Shown here: positions 36,335 to 50,486 of the stretch, in pieces | How the letters are laid out: every line of letters starts with the position of its first letter | How positions within the stretch are numbered: position 1 is the stretch's first letter | Assembly (NCBI GenBank): GCA_034440535.1 | Contig: JAWXCD010000004.1 | Coordinates: forward strand, 2,803 to 66,802 | Source of the DNA: Verrucomicrobiota bacterium | Lineage (GTDB): Bacteria; Verrucomicrobiota; Verrucomicrobiia; JAWXBN01; JAWXCD01 | DNA length: 64,000 bases | Reading direction: 5' to 3' | The notes under the pieces: model-generated | Told to the model about the DNA's origin: nothing | Database searches by the model: none | Seen by the model: only the letters and a program-made list of their open reading frames with translations | Program-made: the position numbers and the translations under genes

Positions 36335-39057
36335 GACTCATTTATGCTTCGGTCAAAAACTACCGTATTCATCAAGGGGACACGCCTGTCACCGTGACCT
36401 TTCAGCCAAATCTCACGTTAATTACTGGAGAAAACGAGACAGGAAAATCGAGTTTTATTCAGGCGATTCACGATTGTTTATTTGTCAAAGCCCGAGGCGA
36501 ATCAGCGATACATAGGCTAATGTGTTGTTCAACGGATATACGGCCAGAAGTAAAAGTGGTGTTTGAATCTAGCGGTGTCGAATACACCGTTTCCAAACAT
36601 TTTCGCGGAGCTAACGGCACCTGCGAATTAAAGAAGGATATCCTTGGGCAATCACCACAAATTTTTTCTGGGAACGATGCTGAAGCTGAGTTGCTTCGGG
36701 CCTTGGGGCTTGATTCTCGAGGATCAGAGCCGACACCTGCCCATTGGCAGCTCTGCTGGGTGCATCAGGGCGTCAGCGGTTTAAACCCCGCAAAACAGAT
36801 TAATGCTGAGGCACGGAATACACTGGATTCGATATTAAAGGAGCAAACAGGGCGCGTCATTTCAACGGGACATGAGCAGATTGTCCTGCGGTGTGTTTTG
36901 GAAAACTTTACGGAGCTGATGACTGAAGATGGCAAGCCGCGAGTGCCGTCAGCCTTAGGTCAGGCGCTGAAATCTTTTGGGGAAGCAGAAAAAATGCTTG
37001 CCGGGATTTTGGATAAATCAAACAGGATGCAGCTCGATCTCACGGACCTTGAGACTTTAAATCGTACGGTCAAGGAGTGTGAAAGTTCCTTTCCAGAAAA
37101 AGAAAAGGCGGTTTTTGAGAATCAGTTAAAACTTCAAACCGCACGCGAGCTTGAGGCAGAGTTGAAGGAATTGGAATCGGCCGTTAAGTTACGTGATTAT
37201 GAAAACAACACTCTGGAGGAAAAATATAAGAGGGGACTGACTCTTCAGTCGGAAATGGAATCCCAGACATTAGGATTAAAAAAGATTTCTGCTGATAGTA
37301 TCGCGGCCCAACAGGAATATGAAACTTGGATAAATAGGGCGTCTGAAAAAGAAGCTGAAACCCAAAAGTGCAGGGAGCGGGAAGCGGCGCTTTACCAAGA
37401 AGTTCAATTTTTGAAACAACGCCAAGAATTGAGCCAGGTTTCCGTTCAGGTGCAAAGTTTACGGGGGACGCTACAAAATGTGACATCCGAAAATGACGCC
37501 CTCAAAAAAGCACAGGCCGAATGTGGTGAGATAAAAATTACGGCGAAAGCGTTCGAAAAAATCAAAGATTTAAAAGCTGAAGTTGAACGGGTGAGCATGA
37601 GCATCCAGGTCTCAGCCGTGAGGGTCAAAGTGACCACCAAATTAAAAACCACGGTCATGATGGGTCGGGTGCCCGCCGATGCATCAAAGGCTCCCGAATA
37701 TGTTCTGACCCAACCTGCGACAATTCATATCGGGGATGATCAGGCTGTGATAGAAGTCATACCAGGGGCAGGCGAGTTGTCCCGGCTTAAGCAAGAGCTG
37801 ACCGAAAAGGAAAATGAATTGCGGATGGCTTTGGGTAAAGCGGGCGAAGTTACTTTTGAGAGCGCCATGGTTAATGATGCGAGGAAGAGGGACCTGGAGG
37901 GTGAAATAAGGCAGTTGCAATTTAAAGTGGGCCTTTTAGCGCCCGAAGGCGTGGACGCGTGTCGTTCTGCTTATGAGGTTGCGCACACAAAGGAAGCTCA
38001 ATTAATCCGAGCTTTAGAAAATTTTGCTCCTTCCACAGTGGGGGCTGAAGTCAGCATCGAGCAGCTGGAAGAGCAATTGAGTGTGGCACGGCAGGCTGCT
38101 GAATGTGCGAGGAACGAACACACTACGGCCACGGCGTCATGCCAAGTTCAACAAAATCTTTTAAGCTCATTTCGCCAAAGTATTCAGGAACGAAAACAAC
38201 GATTGGCTGCGAATGAGGCTCAATGGGCATTAGTCAAAGTCGGTATTAAAGATTGGAACAAAGTCTCAGAAATATTGGAGGATCGGAAACGGGTCGCATT
38301 ACTGCTTAGGAACGATTTCAACGCTAAAAAAAGGGAGTCCGAAGGTTTAGACTGTGCGTCGCTGGAAAAAATATGCGCAGTGTCTAGGACAACTCTAGAA
38401 GGTTTGAAAGCTGACAAGGAGTCAAAGTCACGCGATCGAAGTGAACTTGTGGGGCGATTATCCACTTACGAAGGCACCGGGTTGAATGAAGAGGTCGGCG
38501 ACGCAGGTGCGAAAGTCGAACATTTGCGGAGCCAGGTTGCCCGTGAGAAAAAACATACGGACGCCTTGTGCCTCCTTAAAAACACATTGGTAGATGCTCA
38601 AAGGGAATCCGCCCAGTCTCTTTTAGCCCCTTTACGTGAAACCATAAAACCCTTGTTAGAAATTTTGTTTCCCAAAGCAGACATGCATTTCGAAATCGGT
38701 GAGAAAGGGGGCATCAGTCTCCAGCCTTTAACGCGTTCAGGGCGAGTGGACGATTTTTCAACCTTGAGCGGAGGCACAGCAGAACAGGTGGGTGTCGTTG
38801 TCAGGCTGGGAATAGCACAAGTACTTGCGACCCGATACGGTGGGACCTTGCCCGTTATTCTGGATGACGCCCTTGTCAGCTCTGACTCCGGACGTCACAA
38901 GCAAATGATGGCCGTTCTGCGTCAGGCCTCGCATAAATTGCAGCTCATTATTCTGACTTGCGGGCATCAGGACTATCACTGTCTTGGCGTTCCCGAAGAC
39001 CACGTGTTACACTTAAAACGACCTCTGCCGAAGAAATTACGCGCTATTATAAATTAA
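36331..39057 (+). CDS. sbcC: SbcC/Rad50-like SMC ATPase (YhaN-like)
   Basis: N-terminal Walker A 'LITGENETGKSS', ~600-aa coiled coil, C-terminal signature 'LSGGTAEQVGVVVRLGIAQVL' and Walker B 'PVILDDALVSSD'; start overlaps sbcD stop (ATGA). Confidence 0.85.
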   Translation: MRLIYASVKNYRIHQGDTPVTVTFQPNLTLITGENETGKSSFIQAIHDCLFVKARGESAIHRLMCCSTDIRPEVKVVFESSGVEYTVSKHFRGANGTCELKKDILGQSPQIFSGNDAEAELLRALGLDSRGSEPTPAHWQLCWVHQGVSGLNPAKQINAEARNTLDSILKEQTGRVISTGHEQIVLRCVLENFTELMTEDGKPRVPSALGQALKSFGEAEKMLAGILDKSNRMQLDLTDLETLNRTVKECESSFPEKEKAVFENQLKLQTARELEAELKELESAVKLRDYENNTLEEKYKRGLTLQSEMESQTLGLKKISADSIAAQQEYETWINRASEKEAETQKCREREAALYQEVQFLKQRQELSQVSVQVQSLRGTLQNVTSENDALKKAQAECGEIKITAKAFEKIKDLKAEVERVSMSIQVSAVRVKVTTKLKTTVMMGRVPADASKAPEYVLTQPATIHIGDDQAVIEVIPGAGELSRLKQELTEKENELRMALGKAGEVTFESAMVNDARKRDLEGEIRQLQFKVGLLAPEGVDACRSAYEVAHTKEAQLIRALENFAPSTVGAEVSIEQLEEQLSVARQAAECARNEHTTATASCQVQQNLLSSFRQSIQERKQRLAANEAQWALVKVGIKDWNKVSEILEDRKRVALLLRNDFNAKKRESEGLDCASLEKICAVSRTTLEGLKADKESKSRDRSELVGRLSTYEGTGLNEEVGDAGAKVEHLRSQVAREKKHTDALCLLKNTLVDAQRESAQSLLAPLRETIKPLLEILFPKADMHFEIGEKGGISLQPLTRSGRVDDFSTLSGGTAEQVGVVVRLGIAQVLATRYGGTLPVILDDALVSSDSGRHKQMMAVLRQASHKLQLIILTCGHQDYHCLGVPEDHVLHLKRPLPKKLRAIIN

Positions 39058-39094
39058 CATGGGGGATTTTAGACACGCATACGTAAATTAAGAT

Positions 39095-39412
39095 ATGAGC
39101 TCATTTGATGATTCGATTCGCCACGCATGTCAGAACTCTGCGCCCCCTGTTCCGAATGTTTCGCAAGACGTGATACGTCATATCCGGGAATCTGAATTTG
39201 ACCTGACCCAGCAACGGAAAAAAACTGAGATATTCGTTTACGGGTTAATGCGCCCCACCCTCCTCACAAGCGCCCTTGCGTTGTGTCTCTTGGCTGGACT
39301 CATCGGAGGAGCTCTCTTCAAACATCGCGACGAAAAGGTATTCCTAGCCCGGAATTCCCTTCACGTGGATGTCTTCACCCCGTCCCCTCCGTTGTTTGGC
39401 TCTAATCGTTAA
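39095..39412 (+). CDS. hypothetical small membrane protein
   Basis: ORF with one predicted TM ('LLTSALALCLLAGLIGGALF'); no homology signal. Confidence 0.25.
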   Translation: MSSFDDSIRHACQNSAPPVPNVSQDVIRHIRESEFDLTQQRKKTEIFVYGLMRPTLLTSALALCLLAGLIGGALFKHRDEKVFLARNSLHVDVFTPSPPLFGSNR

Positions 39413-39711
39413 AAATTCAGGTCATACAATTTCGAGAAGCGCAGAAAAAGCTTATAAATGGCGAATAATTTGTCTGTCCCCGTTGAACGCAATCAGTTTG
39501 ATCTAAGAGAAGTTGCTGTCGGTTTTGTTCATCCGATTCATAACCTTGTAGCTGTCATGATCATCAATGGCACGTGCGGCGAGATGAAACACCACAAGCG
39601 TATCCGTGATCTCTGTAGCGCTATTTACGAGGATTTGTAGCTGGTGAAAAAGTACGCGGGGCGCACTTAACCGGGCAATCCCGAAGTCGTTCGGGCATAT
39701 TCCCAAAAAAA

Positions 39712-41985
39712 CTATATTTCCAATTTACCTCTTACCCACTGGGAGAAAATGTCAAATTGCGAGGGAGTGCATAAAATGAGAAGGGCATCGTAGGCAATAA
39801 GATGTTCCGTGTTCAAAGGATTAAGAATTGTTTTCCCCTCACGATGGATGCCGAGAACTTGCACGCCGGTTTTCTTCTGAATGCCCAGCTGAGCTAAAGA
39901 CCTACTAATTAAAGGGGAATAATCCGGAAGTGAAATGGTTTCCAGGGCGGTATCAGACAGTTTCCACTGATGATTATGTGCCTTGGATCTGGAAAGGAAT
40001 TCTAACGCTTTTCTTAAGTACTCTTCATCCCCAAAAAGCAAAACTTTGTCTTCAGGAAATAACATTTCTTCAGGATTAGGATTAGAAATTACAACCCCGT
40101 TTCTTTCTATCTCGATAATTGAACATGAAAACCGATTCCTTAAATCAAGGTCAACTAGTGTTTGACCTACTGCCTGAGCATCTTCTGAGACTGTAAATTC
40201 GCTAAGCTCGACATTCCAATCCATCTGCAGCGAATTTTTAAAGGAACCGGGCATTTGGTTCTCTTCCAAAGCTTGGTTGAAGCTGATTTGAAGCTTACTG
40301 TGCCATCGGATCAACTTGGTCCAAAAGATACCGATGAAAAGGCCAAGTCCAACGAGCATAAAAGTCAGCGTTGTAAGACTGAGCGATTCAAATGGGAGAA
40401 AGACCACCATCCAGAGAAACAGGCAGATGACTGCAAGTATGTGGATGAGCCTGAGCCACATAGCTTGTGTTTGTGATATGGCATCGGAGCCGGCGGTTAG
40501 TCCATCTAAAATTATAAGGATTAAAGCCTCAAAATTCCTCCAAACCGCAACCAATACGAGAGCCACGATCACAAAAACGAACGACCAATAGAAGGCCATC
40601 CACACTGGGAAATCCCATCCCGCTTGGATAAGCAGTGAGTCGATTAATTCCTTTAGTAATCCTGAATAACTGAGCACCCCCGCGATAAGGAATAGTTCTA
40701 TTAAAGCATGCCCCAAACGATTTCGTGCGAGGTTTAAAAAGGCCTTTTGTTGTGTCGTTCTTGAAATTTCTTCGGTAAACCGGCCGTAACTATCAATGAG
40801 TTTAAAAATAATCTTGGGGGCGTGGCTGTCAATTTTTCCGGATATGCCGTCCGAAAAGCGAGCCAGAATGGGAACAATGGCGGCAGTGATTACTGAAACT
40901 CCAACGGCAATAGAGAATAAGCGAGTAGGCATGCCAGCTTCTAGGCCCATTTGGGCAATCACGTATGAAAACTCGCCAATGGGAATTAAAAGCATGGCAG
41001 TACATACGGCTGAACGAAAAGTCGAGCCTCCCAAGATTGATCCCAGAGTGGCTCCTACCATTCTTGCTCCAATAGTGAGAACGGATACAGCGAGGATCCA
41101 CTGCCAATCACGCATGAGGGAATGAATGTCGATCATCATTCCTATAGCCACAAAGAATACGGCGCTAAAGATGTCCTGAGTCCCCATGAGCGCCTTTTCA
41201 ACTTTTTCGCGGAAAGGAGTTTCAGCGACGATCATTCCGAAAAGGAATGCCCCCAGCGCTGGTGAAAAATTAGCTTTATAGGTGGCATATGCGGTAAGAA
41301 AAACGAGTCCCGCGACGAGTATGGTTTTTACGTCTAAATTTCCGGACTTTGAGAAGTGTTTGAGCAATGGAGGAATTACGGATAGGCCTATGACGACCAT
41401 GAGAATTACCAAGCCAGCCAAAAGAAGGAGGGTTTTGAACGGATTGGCATTGGAAGCTCCACTCACCGCATGACCAGAAAGAATCGTCAACATGACAACG
41501 GCTACGATGTCCTCCATGACAACCATGCCTAAGGCCCTTTGAGCAAATCGTTCGTGGGTTAATCTGGCTTCGGCCATAACTTTGGTGATAATCGCCGAAC
41601 TAGAGATCATGAGCATGCCTGCGAGAAATAGGCCTTCATTAGCTGACCATCCCATGGCGTGCGCAAAGAATCGGCTGGCAAAAAATACAACAATAGAAGT
41701 GGTCGCTGTGGCCAGGACAACGGCCAAACCAAGTTTGCGGAGTTTGGCGAGACTCAAATGAAGCCCTACAAAAAACATCACTAGAACCAAGCCTAGGTGC
41801 GAGAAGGTATGAACGCGGTGTTCGTCGATCAATTCGACAATTGGGGAGTGGGGGCCAATGATTAAACCAGCGGCGAGGAACCCTACAATTGATGACAACT
41901 TAAGGGATCGAAAAAAGAGACCGAACACCCCTGCGAAAACAAGCAGAATGGCTAGGTCCTTTAAGAATAAAATACCTTCATCCAC
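39712..41985 (-). CDS. monovalent cation:proton antiporter (CPA2/Kef-type) with C-terminal RCK_C (TrkA-C) domains
   Basis: 12-13 TM Na+/H+ exchanger core, C-terminal 'VSEDAQAVGQTLVDLDLRNRFSCSIIEIERNGVVISNP' TrkA-C-like repeats. Confidence 0.85.
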   Translation of the reverse strand: MDEGILFLKDLAILLVFAGVFGLFFRSLKLSSIVGFLAAGLIIGPHSPIVELIDEHRVHTFSHLGLVLVMFFVGLHLSLAKLRKLGLAVVLATATTSIVVFFASRFFAHAMGWSANEGLFLAGMLMISSSAIITKVMAEARLTHERFAQRALGMVVMEDIVAVVMLTILSGHAVSGASNANPFKTLLLLAGLVILMVVIGLSVIPPLLKHFSKSGNLDVKTILVAGLVFLTAYATYKANFSPALGAFLFGMIVAETPFREKVEKALMGTQDIFSAVFFVAIGMMIDIHSLMRDWQWILAVSVLTIGARMVGATLGSILGGSTFRSAVCTAMLLIPIGEFSYVIAQMGLEAGMPTRLFSIAVGVSVITAAIVPILARFSDGISGKIDSHAPKIIFKLIDSYGRFTEEISRTTQQKAFLNLARNRLGHALIELFLIAGVLSYSGLLKELIDSLLIQAGWDFPVWMAFYWSFVFVIVALVLVAVWRNFEALILIILDGLTAGSDAISQTQAMWLRLIHILAVICLFLWMVVFLPFESLSLTTLTFMLVGLGLFIGIFWTKLIRWHSKLQISFNQALEENQMPGSFKNSLQMDWNVELSEFTVSEDAQAVGQTLVDLDLRNRFSCSIIEIERNGVVISNPNPEEMLFPEDKVLLFGDEEYLRKALEFLSRSKAHNHQWKLSDTALETISLPDYSPLISRSLAQLGIQKKTGVQVLGIHREGKTILNPLNTEHLIAYDALLILCTPSQFDIFSQWVRGKLEI

Positions 41986-42468
41986 GAACCATCGTTATTA
42001 AGGTCTTTGGTTAAGAGAGGAAGCTAATTTTGTTTCTTTGATCTTAATGTGATAAGGCGCAGACAGGTTCTTCACCAAGGTTAAGCCAACTGATCTCCTC
42101 GGGAGAAAGCGTAATATCCAAGGCAAGGAGTCGATGTCAAACTTTTACCGAGCACTGGGGAACTTTATGTTTTGGCGTGTTCTGGAAACCGGTTGGCCAT
42201 AGAACGCGCCATGCGACGACGGCAACTCAAGAAACTCTGGGCCCGCCTAGCGGAATTAAAGAAAATGACGATCCCGCGAGATGCGTTGACGCTAAAACTT
42301 GGAGCGGCCTGCTTTCGACTTCATAAGAAAAACAAAACAGCGCCCGTAGTGAAGACCTTTGGTCAAAATTTCAAGCATCACGAGAGAGGGCTACCAAAAT
42401 ATCCATCCAGTAGCGAAAGTCGGGTTAGGACACCCATGTGTATCACCCAGAGGGACAGAGATTGAGAA

Positions 42469-42870
42469 TTATGGTGTGGCCCTATTCCCGATATCGAGTA
42501 GGTGCCCTTCAGGAAATGTGAGTGTCATGGAAGCGGGAGATATTTTGGGGGCATATTGCACACGGTCAACCGTCCCATTTTTATCCAGAGAAATCAAATA
42601 CTCAGCCCTAAAGGTCATTGGCATGGTGGGATTTTTTCCTGCAATGGTTCCCCACACACCCGGGCGTGCAAAGAGACCAGTGACTATTGTCACTTCAATT
42701 TTAGGAGGGAGTGTCCCGGTGGATTTGACGTATTGGTCACGAAACCAAGGGATAAGTGTTTCAGCCCAGATCCGTTGACCAGCAGGGTTTTTGGCTCCCA
42801 TGCGCATACTGAGGATTTTGCTGATAAAGACAGGGTAATTGGGCCGAAAGACAAGCTGTCCATAGTCGAA
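42469..42870 (-). pseudogene. 5'-truncated gene of unknown function whose open frame runs into the repeat array
   Basis: frame stays open upstream of the listed ATG (42807) through 42870 with no start codon before the repeats; encodes '...MRMGAKNPAGQRIWAETLIPWFRDQYV...'. Confidence 0.35.
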
Positions 42871-43011
42871 AAAAATTAGGGACAGAAAAAAATTAGGGAC
42901 AGGCTATTAGTCGTTGTGCCCGAGGGACAAAAAAAATTAGGGACAGGCTATTAGTCGTTGTGCCCGAGGGACAAAAAAAATTAGGGACAGGCTATTAGTC
43001 GTTGTGCCCGA
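42869..43011 (+). repeat. contiguous array of about 3.5 ~45-nt REP-like units, 'AAAAAAATTAGGGACAGGCTATTAGTCGTTGTGCCCGAGGGACA'
   Basis: direct reading: unit repeated head-to-tail at 42869-42886 (partial), 42887-42930, 42931-42976, 42977-43011 (partial end); no spacers. Confidence 0.9.
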
Positions 43012-43181
43012 AATCTGAAGGGCAAACTATTTTTCATTTATGGAAGACGTCTGGCAGATTACCAATGGAGCCGAATATAAGCGGCGAAGATGAGTCCGAT
43101 GTCATCCTAGGGAAAGCAGGATTAAAAGAAAAAACCGTTCCCAGTGTTGTTTTGATCCTCTTTTGATGCTAACAATGTCCT

Positions 43182-43466
43182 ATGCACAGCCTTCTTGAAG
43201 TCAAAGCCTTGGAACACTTCCAGCTCTGGCTCCGTTACGATGACGGAACACAGGGAGCCGTAGATGTTTCCTCCTATGCCTCTCAGCCAGTGTTTGCCTG
43301 CTGGCATAATCCCGGTGGCTTTGAGGCCGCCCACAAGGGGGAAGGGGGATCAGTTGAATGGAGTGAATCGGCAGACTTGTGTGCGGATGCCCTTTATTTG
43401 AAATTAACCGGACGTCGCCCCGAAGACATTTTTCCCGCACTTAAAAAGGTGACTGTTCATGCCTGA
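43182..43466 (+). CDS. DUF2442-family protein
   Basis: 'LEVKALEHFQLWLRYDDGTQGAVDVS' resembles DUF2442 consensus; 8-nt overlap with following DUF4160 gene (typical pair). Confidence 0.7.
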   Translation: MHSLLEVKALEHFQLWLRYDDGTQGAVDVSSYASQPVFACWHNPGGFEAAHKGEGGSVEWSESADLCADALYLKLTGRRPEDIFPALKKVTVHA

Positions 43467-43719
43467 AATCAGCCGTTTCTTTGGCATCATCATCCGCATG
43501 TATCATGACGACCACGCACCGCCCCACTTCCATGCTGATTACGCCGAATGTAAGGCCGTTATCGACATTCGCACCCTGATGGTGTTGCAAGGGAATATGC
43601 CCGCACGGGCCCTAGGCATGGTCACAGAATGGGCTACCCTTCACCAAGGCGAATTGCTCGCCTTCTGGGACCGCGCCCAATCTGGCCAACCCCTCGAAAA
43701 GATTCCCCCTCTGGCCTGA
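43459..43719 (+). CDS. DUF4160-family protein
   Basis: 'ISRFFGIIIRMYHDDHAPPHFHADYAECKAVIDI' is the hallmark DUF4160 N-terminus. Confidence 0.8.
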   Translation: MPEISRFFGIIIRMYHDDHAPPHFHADYAECKAVIDIRTLMVLQGNMPARALGMVTEWATLHQGELLAFWDRAQSGQPLEKIPPLA

Positions 43720-44050
43720 TTTTTCCTTTTAGCCGTCTCACAGAATTGAAAGTTTGTATCCCTTCGCGCATCTTTTTTTGCAGCTGATATCATCGGCGTT
43801 TCCTCTAAAACAGAGTCAACGGTGTCCTCAAAGGGGACAGACAAATTATTGGTCATTTAAAAGCCATTTTCTACGTTTCCTGTTTTTGTACTATCCATAA
43901 ACCCTATGATCAGAATGCGATCATTAAAATGTAAGGAATTTTCCTTCGAAGTATTGAATCAAAGCATCAAAGCCATGTCTGGGCTGGCCAAGGCATTTCG
44001 AAGGCAAGAAAATGCCCCGTGTTATCCGCCTCTCTGTTTGCTTAAAACTT

Positions 44051-44449
44051 CTAAATCTGGCCCGGGTATCCAATCGTACTCATCTTTAAGTCCCGGAGTG
44101 TCATTATATCCACATCGTCCGCTGCGTGTCTGATTCGACGGGCTCCGGTTTCACGGTTCTTGCCAAACCACTTCCGGTTCTTTTCGAAAACTTTCTCCAC
44201 AAACGCTTCGGTTCCGATGGCAACGCCATCACTAAAGTATCGCACTCGGCACATAAGCAGTTGTCCCAAAGACAGTTTTCCCTCTGAATCCACAACTTTC
44301 CGAACCTCCTCTCGGTCTATCCCGCACCGCATCCGGGGTTGACCGTCATGTGCCGCTCGCGGAGCGTCTTTCGTCTCTGTGCTTTCCGCTACTAAATACA
44401 TGTGCACCCGATACCTTGCCATCTTGTGCTCTGTCTTTCGCAGGTCCAC
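44051..44449 (-). pseudogene. internally deleted COG1943 (IS200-like / REP-associated-type) transposase remnant
   Basis: N-terminal 'MARYRVHMYLV' resembles 'MARP.RIEYPGA.YHVM' starts of this family; C-terminal 'RVRYFSDGVAIGTEAFVEKVFEKNRK' resembles the '...RYRQFVEEG...ILGGEEFLERMK' tail; HuH/Tyr catalytic core absent. Confidence 0.45.
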
Positions 44450-44465
44450 CGCGCACTTTTCCAGA

Positions 44466-44490
44466 ACTAATAGCCTGTCCCTAAGTTTTT
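44466..44490 (-). repeat. single inverted copy of the REP-like unit core (rc = AAAAAACTTAGGGACAGGCTATTAGT)
   Basis: 25/26 nt identical to the array unit at 42887, in reverse complement, 17 nt upstream of the transposase remnant start. Confidence 0.8.
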
Positions 44491-44746
44491 TGTGCGTCCG
44501 GCCCCAAAATACAACTTATCCCATAGCCACGGCTGCGGAATAAGTTGTTTAAATGTCCATCCATTTTAGGTGACCATCCATCTCAAAAAGCCAAAAGATA
44601 AACCTGAGGTTACCAATGCCATCACAACATCGCCCAACCCATACGACATCCCCGAGCAAAATGGACAGTCTTAATCTGGAATTATGCCCAAAACCATACG
44701 ACGCCAATTGTGAGTTTCGATATGATGTTAATTATGAAAATAACAG

Positions 44747-45199
44747 TTACACCCAATCTTTACCTTGGCCGATTTCCATTACTTTCAGTTTTAGCAGGTC
44801 AATCCCTTGCGCGTTCCCGCCTTTGTCTTTTAATAGATCAAGACTACGTAAAAGAAGGCTAAAAAGGAGTCGCCTCCTTTGATGTTCATTAGCAATTTTA
44901 AAGTCTGAATATCTGATTACCAAACGGAAATCCATATCCCTCTTTTTCTTGAAAAATTTAATAACTTCAGAGAAATCTGAATCGTCCCTTAGAATAACTA
45001 TACAATCCCAAGCGTCTACACCAATATCGTATGTTTGTTTTTCAATATCCCCATTGATCACTGCCTCTAGATCTTTTCTGACAGGTTGAAAAACGTCAAC
45101 TATGTCCGCTTGAGTTTCAGTGCCGATCCATAATTTCATATTAATAATCCGATTTGTTAAACGCAGGTCTATTGCCGCCATGATTAGATTTATGGTCAC
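44747..45199 (-). CDS. hypothetical protein, possible barstar-like immunity protein
   Basis: 'EAVINGDIEKQTYDIGVDAWDCIVIL' echoes barstar 'KAVINGEQI...YYGENLDALWDCLTG'; alternative start 'MKLWIG' at 45139 would sit 1 nt after the upstream fragment stop. Confidence 0.35.
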   Translation of the reverse strand: MTINLIMAAIDLRLTNRIINMKLWIGTETQADIVDVFQPVRKDLEAVINGDIEKQTYDIGVDAWDCIVILRDDSDFSEVIKFFKKKRDMDFRLVIRYSDFKIANEHQRRRLLFSLLLRSLDLLKDKGGNAQGIDLLKLKVMEIGQGKDWV

Positions 45200-45467
45200 G
45201 GATTTTTTCTGTTTGCCATTTGTGCATTTCCTTTTTTGTGCCGGAAGTCTCTTTCACATATTCGAGGTTATTATCTTTTAAATATTTTTTCGAGTATCTT
45301 TTTTGCTTTCCGGACCCAAATTTATCTTCCCCACGAGTGGTTTCTCCAAACTTTTTCACCTCTCCAGTATCCCGTTCCCTGAGCGTGTATCCTTCGGCTG
45401 GTTTGTCATCTAACTTATCCCCATGCGTTTTGGATTTTTCAACCGGCGATTGAACCTCTTTTCCGAT
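45141..45467 (-). pseudogene. start-less basic C-terminal ORF fragment (possible orphan toxin C-terminal module)
   Basis: frame open from the in-frame TAA at 45468-45470 down to the stop at 45141-45143, with no ATG. Only a GTG at 45359. Lys-rich sequence with 'EMHKWQTEKIRDHKSNHGGN'. Confidence 0.25.
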
Positions 45468-45800
45468 TTATTTTGAACTCCCACTCGGACTATCTCCAGC
45501 TGCCCGGAGTTTATTCCAACACAGGTTTACGTAGGTAGGAAAAATTGGGAAAAGGGAATCGGCGAAGACGCCGAAGAACAGACAGGATTGTCTATTCCAC
45601 ATTGGGCGTAGGTGCTGGATCATGCCAAGCAAAACTCGGTCAGAGATGCGACTTTTCAACCAAGGGGAATCTGGTTATGGTCTGCTTCAATTTTCTGTCG
45701 ATGAAACATGTTAGACTTAAAGACTATTTGAAACTCCGACTTTTTCAAGTTTCTTGGTTTTATGCATATTTCCTAATGAGATGAAAGTGAAACAAAACTT

Positions 45801-46244
45801 ATGTTGAAACCTTATCGTATTTACATCTGCCTCCTATTGATCATGAGCATTTTGTCGGGTGCCGGGGCATATATCGGGTGCCGGTTTTTTCATGTGAAGG
45901 AAGTGACGCTCGACGCGCACCAATGGTTGCATGAAAAATTAAAACTGACCGCGGAGCAGGAACGACAATTAATCCCCATTGAGAAGAGTTTTGCTCAGAG
46001 GGACACGGATCTTCGGGAAAAGGTCGCTCTTGCAAACATGAAACTTGGCCAGGCCATTAGCGAAGATAAAGCGCTTACTCCGCGAGTGACAAGCATTCTG
46101 AAGGAGACTCAGGACCTCCATGCGCAACTTCAGCAACTGACTCTTGAGCACGTCTTTGACATGGCTTCGGTGCTCTCCCCAGAACAAAAAGAAAAGCTTT
46201 ATAATATCACTGCCACTGCCCTTTTCCGCGGCCAAGGAAAATAA
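45801..46244 (+). CDS. membrane-anchored periplasmic LTXXQ-motif protein (CpxP/Spy/ZraP/CnrX-like metal-stress sensor family)
   Basis: N-terminal TM, then 'LTAEQERQL' and 'LSPEQKEKL' LTXXQ-like motifs in helical repeats. Confidence 0.65.
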   Translation: MLKPYRIYICLLLIMSILSGAGAYIGCRFFHVKEVTLDAHQWLHEKLKLTAEQERQLIPIEKSFAQRDTDLREKVALANMKLGQAISEDKALTPRVTSILKETQDLHAQLQQLTLEHVFDMASVLSPEQKEKLYNITATALFRGQGK

Positions 46245-46248
46245 GGCC

Positions 46249-46791
46249 ATGGACCAGGACACGGCGTGGATTGAACAGATCAAGCAAGGTGATTACGCCG
46301 CTTTAAACTCATTAATGGAAAAGTACAACGCTCCGCTGTACTACTTTATTTATCGGTTCATTCATGACGAGCACGAGGCGCGGGATGTGTTGCAGGAGAC
46401 TTTTGTGAAGGTCTATTTTCGGGCGGCGTCATTTAAGCCGGGGTACACCGTTAGAACATGGATATATTCAATCGCGGCCAACCTGTGTCGTGATCATTAC
46501 CGACGCAAGCAAACGCTCCTAGAAAGATCACTGACAACCTTGGAGGATTGGAGCTTATTGCCTGGAAAAGAATTGTCTCCTTCTCAAACTGTGGAGCAAA
46601 GTGAATTTGCGAACCACGTGCAGAAGGCCATCGATTCATTGTCACCCGAACTCAAGTTGGCTTTTGTATTGAGCGTGTTTGACGGAATGAGTCACAAGGA
46701 ATGTGGTAAGGTATTAGGCAAAACGGCAAAAGCAGTGGAACGGATGGTCTCCCGAGCGCGCCAAAAATTGCAAGCGATTTTAGGAGAATAA
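46249..46791 (+). CDS. ECF-type RNA polymerase sigma-70 factor
   Basis: region 2 'LYYFIYRFIHDEHEARDVLQETFVKVY', region 4 'VFDGMSHKECGKVLGKTAKAVERMVSRARQKL'; true start ATG at 46249 (listed ORF starts earlier inside preceding gene). Confidence 0.85.
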   Translation: MDQDTAWIEQIKQGDYAALNSLMEKYNAPLYYFIYRFIHDEHEARDVLQETFVKVYFRAASFKPGYTVRTWIYSIAANLCRDHYRRKQTLLERSLTTLEDWSLLPGKELSPSQTVEQSEFANHVQKAIDSLSPELKLAFVLSVFDGMSHKECGKVLGKTAKAVERMVSRARQKLQAILGE

Positions 46792-46833
46792 AAAATATAG
46801 GGGGATAATATAAGGCACTTCGTAAGAGTAAGT

Positions 46834-48123
46834 ATGAAACAATTTTTCCGAACGACTTCGCTTTGTCTTTTCCTGACTGCAGTAAATGGACTTATGGCGC
46901 ATGAAGAACCCGCGCATGCGGAATCAGCCCATGGAGTTCCCGCCACAACTTATTCCTCAGTGCCGCAGGCATGGCAGAGTTTGACGACCGCCGTGACTGA
47001 AACAACTAAGGCTCTCGCTTCACAAAACCTGGATTCAATTCATCACCAGGCGGGGACAATGACCGCTGCGGGTCAATACCTGCAGAAGAATAGCTCGATG
47101 GTGACCGGCGATAAACAAGTTCGGCTTGCCAGTGCATTAAAACAATTCTTGCAGATTACTGATCATTTCCATCATGCTGCCGATGATAAGGACAAGGTCC
47201 GGGCTGAGAGTGAACTTAAAAAATTGAACGGAGCACTACTGCTCATTAAAGCTCAATACCCCGCTGGTTTATTGGATGAACCAACCCCAACAAAAGACGC
47301 CGTGTCTACAGCTGGACATGGCCAATCACATGCTCAAGTCGTGCCGAGTTCGACTCCTCTGCAAATGGAAGTCAAGTCCGCCCCCTTGTTGGTACCGGGG
47401 AAGGAGTCCACGGTGACTGTGACTTTAAAAACACAGGAGGGGAAAGTGTTATCGTATGCGGATCTCAATACCAGTCACACCGAGAAACTTCATATGCTCA
47501 TAATTGATCAGACGCTTACGGAATATTTTCATATCCATCCCCGCGAGGAAAAGGGAGTGGCTCAATTTAAAATTAAACCGACATTACCTGGTCCTTACTT
47601 AGTTTGGGCCGACATCGTGCCCAAGAGCACCGGTGAACAACAATACGTTCGTGGGGAGTTAATTTCAGCACAGAAGTCCACCGGCATTATTAATAAGACT
47701 TTGAAAATGACCGATGAAATTGACGGATACAAATTCACGATGACGATGACCGCAACGCCTACAGCCGGGAGCATGGGGGAAGGCAAATTTTCTGTATTTG
47801 ACGCCAAAGGTAAACCAGTGACTTTTCTTGAACCCATCATGGGAGCATACGCGCACATTGTAGGGTTCAATGAAGATCGAACATCGATTGCGCATATTCA
47901 TCCAATGGGTGCTGAACCCACTAAACCGACTGACCGCGGAGGTCCAGACTTAACGTTTCATTTTGGACCTGAAAAACCTGGATATTACAAATTATTTGGT
48001 CAAGTTAAGATCAAAGGAAAAGAGTACTTTGCAGATTTTGGGCTCTTAGTATCGCCTAGCGAAGAGAAATCCAAAGCACCTTCTTCTCCAGTGCCTCAAG
48101 AGGCAAAGCCTCATCATCATTAA
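46834..48123 (+). CDS. hypothetical periplasmic His-rich protein (putative metal-binding), ends in HHH
   Basis: signal peptide; repeated H-x-H motifs ('FHIHP', 'IAHIHPMG'), C-terminal 'KPHHH'; context in metal efflux cluster. Confidence 0.5.
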   Translation: MKQFFRTTSLCLFLTAVNGLMAHEEPAHAESAHGVPATTYSSVPQAWQSLTTAVTETTKALASQNLDSIHHQAGTMTAAGQYLQKNSSMVTGDKQVRLASALKQFLQITDHFHHAADDKDKVRAESELKKLNGALLLIKAQYPAGLLDEPTPTKDAVSTAGHGQSHAQVVPSSTPLQMEVKSAPLLVPGKESTVTVTLKTQEGKVLSYADLNTSHTEKLHMLIIDQTLTEYFHIHPREEKGVAQFKIKPTLPGPYLVWADIVPKSTGEQQYVRGELISAQKSTGIINKTLKMTDEIDGYKFTMTMTATPTAGSMGEGKFSVFDAKGKPVTFLEPIMGAYAHIVGFNEDRTSIAHIHPMGAEPTKPTDRGGPDLTFHFGPEKPGYYKLFGQVKIKGKEYFADFGLLVSPSEEKSKAPSSPVPQEAKPHHH

Positions 48124-48141
48124 CTTGGTGATTCTGAATTC

Positions 48142-49398
48142 ATGAAAGTTTGCCTCTCCACTTTGATTGTTATATTTGCCCTTGCTCAATCCATACATGC
48201 AGGATCGGGGGAGGAAGTAATTTCTGATGAAAAAACACTCACATTGGAGCAGGTACTCAATCATGCTGTTAAAAAAAGTCCTGAAATTTTAAAGGTTCGC
48301 CGGGATTTATTAACCCGACTTGCGGAGGCCACGGACGTGCAGACACCCGAAAGTCCCGAGGTTCAAGTCGACTACCTGCAACCTACTGGGGACATTGGCG
48401 AGGAGGAAAGCCCCTCAAGCGTGGATTTTGAATTCACCATGCCATTACGAATTTCCTACTTTGGAGTACGTCAAGCGTACGCCTCCGCGTTAAAAGACGT
48501 GGCGCGTCAAGAGAATCAAGCAGCGGTATACGCGGGTCTGAATAATGTGACGCTCGCTTATTACAGATTATGGGCTTTGGAACAAAGGATGGCCTATCTG
48601 GAAAATGCCGAGGCTCTGTCCAAGGATATCATCATCCGCATTCAAGCTCGCAAGGACGAAGTGCCAGAGCAACAGGCTTTGCTTTTTGAAGCTGAAGCTT
48701 ACCGGTTTGGAGCAGAAGCTGGAGCCGCGCGCGCTCAGATACTTGAAGCGCATCAGGAAATCATTCGTATGACAGGCTTGCCTTATTCCGGAATAAAAAC
48801 AGTGCGCCCCATGTTTGTTCCCGTGCCGCTTAATGAATCACAGCTCAAACAGTTTGCCCGTAGTCGCTCAGGTATGCGGCAGCTTATTCAAGCTCGGACA
48901 CGCGCAGCGGATCGCGCACTTGATGTCGCACGATTGGACGTTATCCCCGAGTTCTCACCTCGATTTTTATATGAATGGTCTGAGGCTGAAGAAGAAAAAA
49001 GATGGGGCGTGGGCGTGGCAGTGAAAATTCCATTTTTGAATCAGAACAAAGCTGAAATCCAAAAAGCCCGCGCTGAAGTTGACCTCGCGCACGCAGAAGA
49101 AAAAGCGTTTCAAACGATTAGTTTGGATCGCCTCATTGAAATGCGTGTCCGCACCGCGCGTGCCTTTCAGACACGTGCCGATTCTTATTGGACGAAAATT
49201 TTGCCAGCGTATCGCAAACTTTATTTGGTGACCCTGATCAATTTCGAGGCGGGTACAGCAACAGTTTTAGATGTGCGCGATGCACAAACTCGTTTGTTAG
49301 ACGCGGAAAATCAGGCTCTGCAAAATACAATAGAATCTCTCTCTGCTCGGGCCTTACTCGAACAACTTTTGGGCGGGAAAATTGAGGAGATCAAATGA
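48142..49398 (+). CDS. outer membrane efflux protein (TolC/CzcC family)
   Basis: signal peptide, two helical repeats typical of OMF, position directly upstream of adaptor and RND pump. Confidence 0.75.
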   Translation: MKVCLSTLIVIFALAQSIHAGSGEEVISDEKTLTLEQVLNHAVKKSPEILKVRRDLLTRLAEATDVQTPESPEVQVDYLQPTGDIGEEESPSSVDFEFTMPLRISYFGVRQAYASALKDVARQENQAAVYAGLNNVTLAYYRLWALEQRMAYLENAEALSKDIIIRIQARKDEVPEQQALLFEAEAYRFGAEAGAARAQILEAHQEIIRMTGLPYSGIKTVRPMFVPVPLNESQLKQFARSRSGMRQLIQARTRAADRALDVARLDVIPEFSPRFLYEWSEAEEEKRWGVGVAVKIPFLNQNKAEIQKARAEVDLAHAEEKAFQTISLDRLIEMRVRTARAFQTRADSYWTKILPAYRKLYLVTLINFEAGTATVLDVRDAQTRLLDAENQALQNTIESLSARALLEQLLGGKIEEIK

Positions 49399-50486
49399 GT
49401 CGTCTGTTTTGTTTCTTGGTTATCACTGCGGCGTTCATTTCGGTTACCGTGTACGGGCACGAAGGCCATGTTCATGGTCCAGAGTTGACAGATCAACCTG
49501 CAGCCACTACTAACGCCGCGGCTAGCCCTGGGGCTATTGTATTGGCCGAAACGTCGATTATTAATCTCCAGGTTGAAACTGTGATCGCACAGATTGCAAC
49601 CTTGGAAAAAGTTTTAGAAATACCCGCGCGGTTGGAGTATCTGCCTGAAAAACACGCGGTTCTTACAGCGCGATTTGAAGGGAAAGTGTCGCGCATTCAC
49701 GTCAAACAAGGACAGGCCGTGAGTTTAGGGGATCCCGTAATGACGCTCGATCCGGTGTCTATTGGAAATCCTCCCGTGATATTACGCTCCAGACTTTCCG
49801 GTCATGTGGCATCTGTGAATGCGATTATAGGCCAAGCTTTTACTCCGGAAACTATTTTAGCAGAAGTCGGTGATTCCTCCGTTTTACTTGCGAAAGGATC
49901 GGCATACGAAATAAATGCTCTGCATAAAGTGGAATTAGGGAGTCTGGCGACATTAAAAGTTGAAATGTTTCCGGACGCTATTTTTAACGGCAAAATAACG
50001 CGCAAAGATATTGGAGTCGGGCCAGAGAATCGAGTGGCCGAGCTTTACGTGGGTGTGGAGAATGCTTCGCTTCAACTGTTGCCTTACACTTCAGGAACAC
50101 TGTTTGTCCAGACGGAATCAATTCCCGGAATTTTAAGTGTTCCTCGGCGAGCCGTTTTGGGTGAAATCGGCAATTTATTTGTTTTTGTTCGTAACGGGAA
50201 TTCATTTGAACGGCGTACAGTCGTTTTGGGAATAAAATCAGGTGAGCTTGTGGAGGTTTTGGAAGGCGTGTTCCCCGGAGAAAATGTCGTGGTTAAAGGA
50301 AATTATCAATTGCAGTATCTCAACCCGTCCGCGGTGGCTCCCGTTGTCGCTGAAGAACAAACGCGTTCGTGGTTCTGGTGGATCATTGCGGGCGTGGTGA
50401 CGGGGGCCGCTCTCCTACTGATAGGACTCTATCGAAAGCGGCCTGAGCTTTTCCGACAGGTGCAAATTTTTCACAGGAAAAAATAA
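49395..50486 (+). CDS. efflux RND transporter periplasmic adaptor subunit (CzcB/CusB-like) with His-rich N-terminus
   Basis: 'HEGHVHGPE' metal-site-like N-terminus, biotinyl/lipoyl and beta-barrel segments, 4-nt overlap with OMF gene. Confidence 0.8.
   Translation: MSRLFCFLVITAAFISVTVYGHEGHVHGPELTDQPAATTNAAASPGAIVLAETSIINLQVETVIAQIATLEKVLEIPARLEYLPEKHAVLTARFEGKVSRIHVKQGQAVSLGDPVMTLDPVSIGNPPVILRSRLSGHVASVNAIIGQAFTPETILAEVGDSSVLLAKGSAYEINALHKVELGSLATLKVEMFPDAIFNGKITRKDIGVGPENRVAELYVGVENASLQLLPYTSGTLFVQTESIPGILSVPRRAVLGEIGNLFVFVRNGNSFERRTVVLGIKSGELVEVLEGVFPGENVVVKGNYQLQYLNPSAVAPVVAEEQTRSWFWWIIAGVVTGAALLLIGLYRKRPELFRQVQIFHRKK

Follow-up and report, generated by a model that had tools for sequence, protein, structure and literature searches.

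The minus strand of a Verrucomicrobiota contig (JAWXCD010000004.1, assembly GCA_034440535.1) harbours, at positions 44747-45467 of the 64,000-nucleotide stretch analysed here and referred to below as the window, two small adjoining reading frames. The upstream frame lacks a start codon and encodes a complete toxin domain of the URI/GIY-YIG fold; the downstream gene, which begins exactly 1 nt past the stop codon of the toxin frame, encodes an immunity protein of the Imm44 family. An earlier note on this DNA, drawn from the letters alone, had described the pair as a start-less C-terminal toxin fragment followed after 1 nt by a small barstar-like immunity gene. The spacing and the architecture that it proposed, a toxin C-terminal domain devoid of its delivery region with an immunity gene immediately behind it, were borne out, and since a delivery-less C-terminal toxin domain here precedes its immunity gene we read the locus as an orphan cassette of a polymorphic-toxin system. 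The molecular identities of both partners differ from those first suggested. In our judgement the cassette is likely to be a solitary and horizontally acquired derivative of an Rhs-type system, with a silent toxin and an immunity gene that is under selection.

The toxin frame and its domain

The limits proposed for the toxin frame, an in-frame TAA at 45468-45470 and a stop at 45141, were reproduced with 108 open codons between them (Table 1), and the description of its product as a very basic peptide is accurate (pI 9.5, 18.5% Lys). A search of 5.8 billion proteins recovered 19 homologues of the frame at 52-71% identity (E 1e-19 to 1e-40), and the region is thus conserved in relatives. Their consensus reads HGNxLDDKPAEGYxLRDxxTGEVxKYGETTRG...QKRY...GTKKxMHxWQxxKI...RPxLNKSDY. 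Because the whole of this conserved region is present in the window copy, it constitutes a full domain of ~95 residues rather than the truncated C-terminal tip that had been envisaged. Ahead of the domain the frame contains no ATG, GTG or TTG. The earlier statement that it has no ATG and only a GTG at 45359 holds as far as the region ahead of the domain is concerned; a sole ATG does occur at 45227 (Met81), deep within the domain. The GTG is preceded by GGAGA at a distance of just 1 nt, and its 72-aa product would be without strand 1 and the invariant Tyr27.

With the Pfam family Tox-URI2 (PF15653) the window copy scores 14.9 bits, short of the cutoff of 20 (E 0.034), and aligns with profile positions 5-77 of 86. 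The family is also matched by 11 of the 19 close relatives at E<=1, with a best E of 5.6e-5, and the precomputed Pfam annotation is blank for all 19 homologues. In a set of 65 diverse family members only four reach Tox-URI2 at E<=0.01, and the clade is consequently best regarded as a sister group of Tox-URI2 that lies outside formal Pfam coverage; in view of the sub-threshold scores we file the domain as Tox-URI2-like and not as a formal member. An AlphaFold2 model of the domain, with a predicted local distance difference test (pLDDT) score of 79, displays the beta-beta-alpha-alpha-beta-alpha order found in GIY-YIG nucleases, and a sequence search of the PDB with the toxin domain gave no match. 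The toxin classes that had been put forward earlier, namely barnase-like, EndoU and Ntox, give way to the URI/GIY-YIG fold.

The signature of Tox-URI2 has been given as 'Y, KxG, [EQ]' (Zhang et al. 2012; PMC3482391). The corresponding residues of the clade are Y27 and G41, each present in 65 of 65 diverse members, and K39, E42 and Q85, each present in 64 of 65; all five are found in the window copy. In the HGN motif, 63 of the 65 have Asn at position 17, and the window copy alone has Asp. This N17D substitution is the single change among the invariant and near-invariant residues of the window copy and may represent an attenuating change or relaxed constraint in an orphan. With a family profile from which it was left out, the window domain attains 182 bits, the top of all loci, compared with 169-176 bits for the Rhs-borne copies. 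The domain would be expected to have nuclease activity.

Relatives, carriers and conserved pairing

A profile search of the toxin domain across 1.84 billion representative proteins identified 379 relatives, and in all 150 of those listed the domain occupies the extreme C-terminus. Homologous full-length toxins do exist in other bacteria, where the domain forms the C-terminus of Rhs, PT-HINT and CdiA-like proteins: RHS proteins among the carriers range from 1110 to >2400 aa, RHS repeats are present in P0038, P0047, P0057 and P0083, and other long carriers comprise a Big_7/SBBP protein (P0068), a PT-HINT protein (P0041) and a DUF637, CdiA-like protein (P0061). A locus scan restricted to one genome per species yielded 26 loci spanning Bacteroidota, Proteobacteria, Acidobacteriota, Spirochaetota, Firmicutes and Verrucomicrobiota. 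The last of these phyla is represented by an Opitutia metagenome-assembled genome (MAG; locus L023), in which the toxin domain forms the end of a LamG-Big_7-DUF6531-RHS protein (at least 2096 aa) that is followed by Imm44.

A profile scan of 32 related loci from many phyla placed an Imm44 gene immediately behind the toxin domain, on its 3' side, in 27, and the toxin/Imm44 pairing accordingly represents a conserved toxin-immunity unit. Together with the C-terminal position of the domain in its carriers, this backs the reading of the window pair as a cassette. The immunity partners of Tox-URI2 include Imm44, its carriers include RHS and HINT proteins, and the phyla listed for it do not include Verrucomicrobiota (Zhang et al. 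2012; PMC3482391). Imm44 itself is listed there as partner of URI-fold or ParBL1 toxin domains. The Tox-URI2/Imm44 pairs of that study (Biol Direct 7:18) and the pair described here have in common the URI (GIY-YIG) fold, the signature residues, a C-terminal position on RHS and HINT proteins, and Imm44 as the immediate downstream gene. They differ in that the present clade scores below the Pfam threshold and possesses an extra N-terminal HGN motif, and in that the window copy is unattached to any delivery protein.

A Gly/Ala-rich hydrophobic stretch (e.g. GAAITTGGVAGGIFAASLATGGVVATGG...) is located between the end of the Rhs core and the toxin domain in many carriers, including L009, L011, P0005, P0010 and P0012. 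This stretch, which is absent from the window copy, may serve for membrane entry. A phage origin was considered and rejected, a relative being present on only one viral contig.

The immunity gene

The 150-codon minus-strand open reading frame (ORF) that had been noted as the immunity candidate does exist, running from a GTG at 45199 to 44747, and contains the AVING...DAWDC strings that had attracted attention. The real start is however the ATG immediately behind the toxin stop, which gives a protein of 130 aa: its homologues all begin at this point, nearly all of the 13 (41-58% identity) with MKLWI, and the NCBI annotation likewise starts the gene there (MKLWIG...). Its residues 1-106 align with profile positions 1-112 of 126 of Pfam Imm44 (PF15571) and score 38 bits, where the cutoff is 25 (E 2.3e-9); the family is found in 13 of the 13 homologues. 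NCBI also holds a 100% identical protein named 'Imm44 family immunity protein [Verrucomicrobiota bacterium]' (P0020). The gene had been called small and acidic, and acidic it is only marginally, with a pI of 5.85 and 23 Asp and Glu against 22 Lys and Arg residues. The AlphaFold2 model is of high confidence (pLDDT 93) and shows the order beta-alpha-beta-beta-beta-alpha-alpha-alpha; a sequence search of the PDB with the protein returned noise only. As a member of this family, the protein would be expected to bind and block the cognate toxin.

Table 1. Features of the toxin/Imm44 cassette and its immediate surroundings, in coordinates of the window
Feature	Position	Strand	Remark
Toxin frame, start-less	45467-45144 (108 open codons); stop TAA 45143-45141	minus	complete Tox-URI2-like (GIY-YIG fold) domain
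Conserved part of toxin domain	~K13 (45431) to Y108 (45144)	minus	
In-frame TAA closing the frame 5' of the toxin domain	45470-45468	minus	
GTG, first canonical start of the toxin frame	45359-45357	minus	start of the NCBI 72-aa 'hypothetical protein' (P0002)
Codon GAT (Asp17) in HGN motif	45419-45417	minus	N17D, unique substitution at a near-invariant Asn
Terminator-like GC hairpin with T-rich tail	45574-45559	minus	~90 nt 5' of the toxin frame; consensus match only
Imm44-family immunity gene, 130 aa	ATG 45139; stop TAA 44749-44747	minus	
Imperfect palindrome, 18-nt arms, 83% complementary, 2-nt loop	44511-44548		200 nt 3' of the Imm44 stop

Genomic setting

The GC content of the cassette is 38.7%, and that of the window averages 47.3% (sd 3.0). 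The cassette falls in the lowest 0.5% of segments of equal size and is the lowest-GC place of the entire window. It resides in a 3.8-kb stretch that reaches from a cation/proton antiporter gene (39712-41985) to a metal-resistance/extracytoplasmic function (ECF)-sigma/efflux operon; the operon gene at 45801 is divergent from the cassette and separated from it by a gap of ~330 bp. Upstream of the TAA, tblastn searches of 44400-46000 with the 200-aa pre-toxin regions of relatives longer than 250 codons detected no pre-toxin or Rhs remnant, the best E being 0.021 and located elsewhere in that region, and at the DNA level relatives resemble the window only within 45122-45438. The toxin frame remains open for 63 further codons upstream of the TAA (45659-45471), with the terminator-like hairpin inside this extension; the hairpin has no obvious upstream gene to terminate. 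No Rhs, CdiA or other delivery protein is encoded by the nine largest ORFs of the window or by the neighbours of the cassette; the nine large ORFs are housekeeping genes or unassigned and include those for a penicillin-binding protein, CarB, an AcrB-type pump and an SMC-like protein, among others.

The databases searched yielded no protein above 77% identity to the toxin domain except the contig's own 72-aa ORF, and the 5.8-billion-protein search, which covers the proteins of this MAG, revealed no other copy above 71% identity, a weak negative. Two metagenome scans for relatives that would show the site free of the insert, one with the Metal_resist protein and the other with the antiporter, gave no match. 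Neither a non-coding RNA nor a tRNA integration site was detected in 38000-50000, and flanking repeats or target-site duplications at the cassette amount to short matches at chance level only. The palindrome behind the Imm44 gene is present as a single copy in the window and may be a terminator or a hairpin resembling repetitive extragenic palindromic (REP) elements.

Beyond the palindrome lies a 132-aa minus-strand ORF (44051-44449) that had been labelled a 'REP/transposase remnant'. The label could not be confirmed: the ORF has only three short homologues and no match in Pfam, NCBIfam or tblastn searches of plasmids. A 91%-identical, 166-aa copy is located directly after a recG gene on a Joint Genome Institute (JGI) metagenome contig (L033, 3027-3527) and a further relative at 52% elsewhere, such that the ORF looks like a fragment of a dispersed element. 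Its RVRYFSDG...FVEKVF motif is reminiscent of the C-terminal part of COG1943 (RayT/IS200-like) transposases, which is no more than a lead. One kilobase from the cassette and within the same 3.8-kb stretch, an overlapping pair of DUF2442 and DUF4160 genes (43182-43466 and 43459-43719, plus strand) has a GC content of 54.5%; such pairs are often discussed as a putative toxin-antitoxin-like module. The ~1.2 kb between this pair and the antiporter gene (41986-43181) contain three mutually overlapping ORFs of 112-139 aa (42359-42778, plus; 42469-42807, minus; 42502-42879, plus). No match was obtained in Pfam with the ORF at 42469-42807, in NCBIfam with all three ORFs, or in Rfam; the segment could represent unannotated sequence or a gene in decay.

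Orphan cassettes in other genomes

Toxin/Imm44 pairs detached from a delivery protein occur elsewhere in the family. In an Acinetobacter sp. (L003; GCA_045628685.1, 7247-10079) a toxin frame of 111 codons with TTG as its only start and no Shine-Dalgarno sequence is followed by Imm44. The pair, which was observed on 14 contigs, has an IS6-family (DDE_Tnp_IS240) gene on either side, and the bare cassette may move in a pseudo-compound transposon. The orphan toxin frames of Hahella (L006) and of L027 are N-truncated, and are therefore clearly non-functional, and both loci have kept Imm44. A short-frame orphan pair in L001 (GCA_965185005.1, 1-9800) is embedded amongst ~15 small genes on the same strand, including DUF4240 and DUF2251 genes, in what looks like a poly-immunity or orphan array, and L019 carries a second, truncated pair behind its main Rhs pair. 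The orphans L015, L018, L026 and L029-L031 retain the end of the Rhs core, which is the classical substrate for recombination. A comparable arrangement is known from Salmonella Dublin, in which a 113-aa Tox-URI2 ORF (SED_RS24315) adjoins RHSmain (PMC8867033).

Among the closest described counterparts are the orphan rhs-CT/rhsI modules (Koskiniemi et al. 2014, PLoS Genet 10:e1004255). The window cassette resembles them in that a toxin C-terminal domain with neither a start of its own ahead of it nor a delivery part is followed by an immunity gene, and in that the toxin would stay silent until recombination joined it to a main rhs gene. Classical rhs orphans, and L015, L018, L026 and L029-L031 with them, closely follow a main rhs gene and retain a piece of the conserved core that makes recombination possible. 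The window cassette, by contrast, is solitary: it has no delivery gene among the ORFs scanned and no core remnant upstream, and it is placed between the antiporter gene and the metal-resistance/ECF-sigma operon. Orphan or acquired immunity genes that shield bystanders from type VI secretion system (T6SS) and Rhs toxins, as in poly-immunity arrays, offer a second parallel, as they too comprise intact immunity genes without a usable cognate toxin and were probably acquired horizontally. They differ from the window in that the latter has a single gene with a complete toxin domain still adjoining it, and in that its protective role is putative.

Interpretation and alternatives

In its native setting the domain would act as the warhead of an Rhs, PT-HINT or CdiA-like protein that is delivered into a rival cell, in whose cytoplasm it presumably cuts nucleic acid, and Imm44 would bind and block the cognate toxin domain in the producer cell. 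In the window the toxin domain is likely not made at all, and at most a 72-aa product from GTG 45359 would result; lacking a start codon, a delivery region and a ribosome-binding context, the toxin part is most likely silent. The Imm44 gene would then be the part under selection, serving as orphan immunity that protects the Verrucomicrobiota cell from neighbours equipped with this type of toxin, and the toxin domain would be a silent passenger alongside it. Because there is no Rhs-core sequence upstream, the domain is unlikely to be reactivated through homologous recombination that joins it to a resident rhs gene.

A number of observations speak against this reading. The window copy falls below the Tox-URI2 gathering score and is formally no Pfam member, the fraction of diverse relatives with a convincing Tox-URI2 match is small, and the top rank in a Foldseek search with the toxin model, UvrC, is not significant (E 0.9); for these reasons the URI assignment stands on moderate evidence. 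Apart from N17D the toxin domain is undecayed, whereas damage would be expected in a passenger that has been silent for long, and its intactness therefore points either to recent acquisition or to something that maintains the domain. The 1-nt spacing between the toxin frame and Imm44 is what would be seen in a translationally coupled pair, no promoter was identified for the Imm44 gene, and a full-length toxin may be present elsewhere in the genome, beyond the window.

Some of these points would be accommodated if the pair were a working stand-alone module akin to a toxin-antitoxin or addiction system, its toxin translated from a non-canonical start (ATC 45467) or by read-through of the TAA and its Imm44 by translational coupling, and its function the stabilisation of the island or abortive infection. 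The fully intact domain, the best scorer against the family profile, would fit such a module, as would the 1-nt gap, the GGGAG at 45482-45478, 10 nt 5' of the ATC, and the equally minimal mobile cassettes found elsewhere, such as the Acinetobacter copy between IS6-family genes. However, ATC starts are extremely rare, and the Acinetobacter copy itself lacks a Shine-Dalgarno sequence and has TTG as its sole start. In Hahella and L027 the orphans are clearly dead and yet have kept Imm44; the unique N17D at a near-invariant site suits relaxed constraint or attenuation; and in every relative listed the domain is a C-terminal fusion rather than a free protein with its own start. We accordingly regard a working module as unlikely. 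A related idea holds that bare, start-less toxin domains with Imm44 travel as mobile units in which the domain is kept intact by selection, which might operate through unconventional translation, as in an Rhs-derived addiction module, or through the value of a transferable warhead reservoir. It agrees with the top score of the window copy and with the minimal Acinetobacter copy between IS6-family elements on its 14 contigs, and also with the fact that the cuts in the window and Acinetobacter copies nearly coincide, 11-13 codons ahead of the KTHGN motif; we give it a low probability.

Two further explanations would alter the history or the nature of the pair. The frame may have been the 3' end of a longer toxin gene until the nonsense codon TAA 45470-45468 recently inactivated that gene in place; the open frame upstream would then be part of the former gene, and the ...AAGDSPSGSSK that precedes the TAA is indeed loosely like the Ser/Pro-rich linkers ahead of the domain in some homologues (e.g. 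P0005). Set against the open frame and the linker are the failure of the pre-toxin regions to find anything upstream, the end of DNA similarity to relatives at 45438 and the terminator-like hairpin inside the upstream frame; moreover, that frame cannot reach past 45659, with the start of the divergent gene at 45801, and leaves no room for a delivery domain. Inactivation in place is thus improbable. The notion that a barstar-like inhibitor accompanies an RNase tip of the barnase, EndoU or Ntox type finds some sustenance in a short local likeness: in BLASTP, the Imm44 protein matches a barstar sequence at 13 of 45 positions over I..E...I.D and DAWDC (E 0.016). Like barstar, the protein would be a small cytoplasmic inhibitor encoded directly past a nuclease toxin. 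The residues behind the AVING/DAWDC resemblance are, though, N29 and W44, both of them conserved in Imm44. The Pfam check shows Imm44 above its cutoff and no Barstar (PF01337) match at E<=1, and the predicted fold is a different one, barstar having an alternating beta/alpha order unlike that of the Imm44 model. As the downstream gene belongs to another family with another predicted fold, and its partner has a GIY-YIG fold and is no barnase-type RNase, the barstar identity was rejected, and we consider this explanation highly improbable. The orphan cassette with a silent toxin and a selected immunity gene remains the reading that we favour.

Significance

The kind of system represented by the cassette has well-known precedents in Zhang et al. 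(2012), in orphan Rhs modules and in orphan immunity genes, and its Imm44 gene is already annotated correctly. The main value of the present analysis is one of annotation and it opens no new question: the 72-aa 'hypothetical protein' of NCBI is the tail of a complete URI-fold toxin domain, and this domain belongs to a clade whose 379 relatives, as recovered by the profile search, are missed by Pfam Tox-URI2 at its gathering score. The toxin/Imm44 pair is newly placed in the Verrucomicrobiota, in the form of an Rhs warhead in the Opitutia MAG and of the solitary cassette in the window. The latter adds a further example of an immunity gene without a usable toxin, and as such points to contact-dependent attack in the community in which the organism lives.

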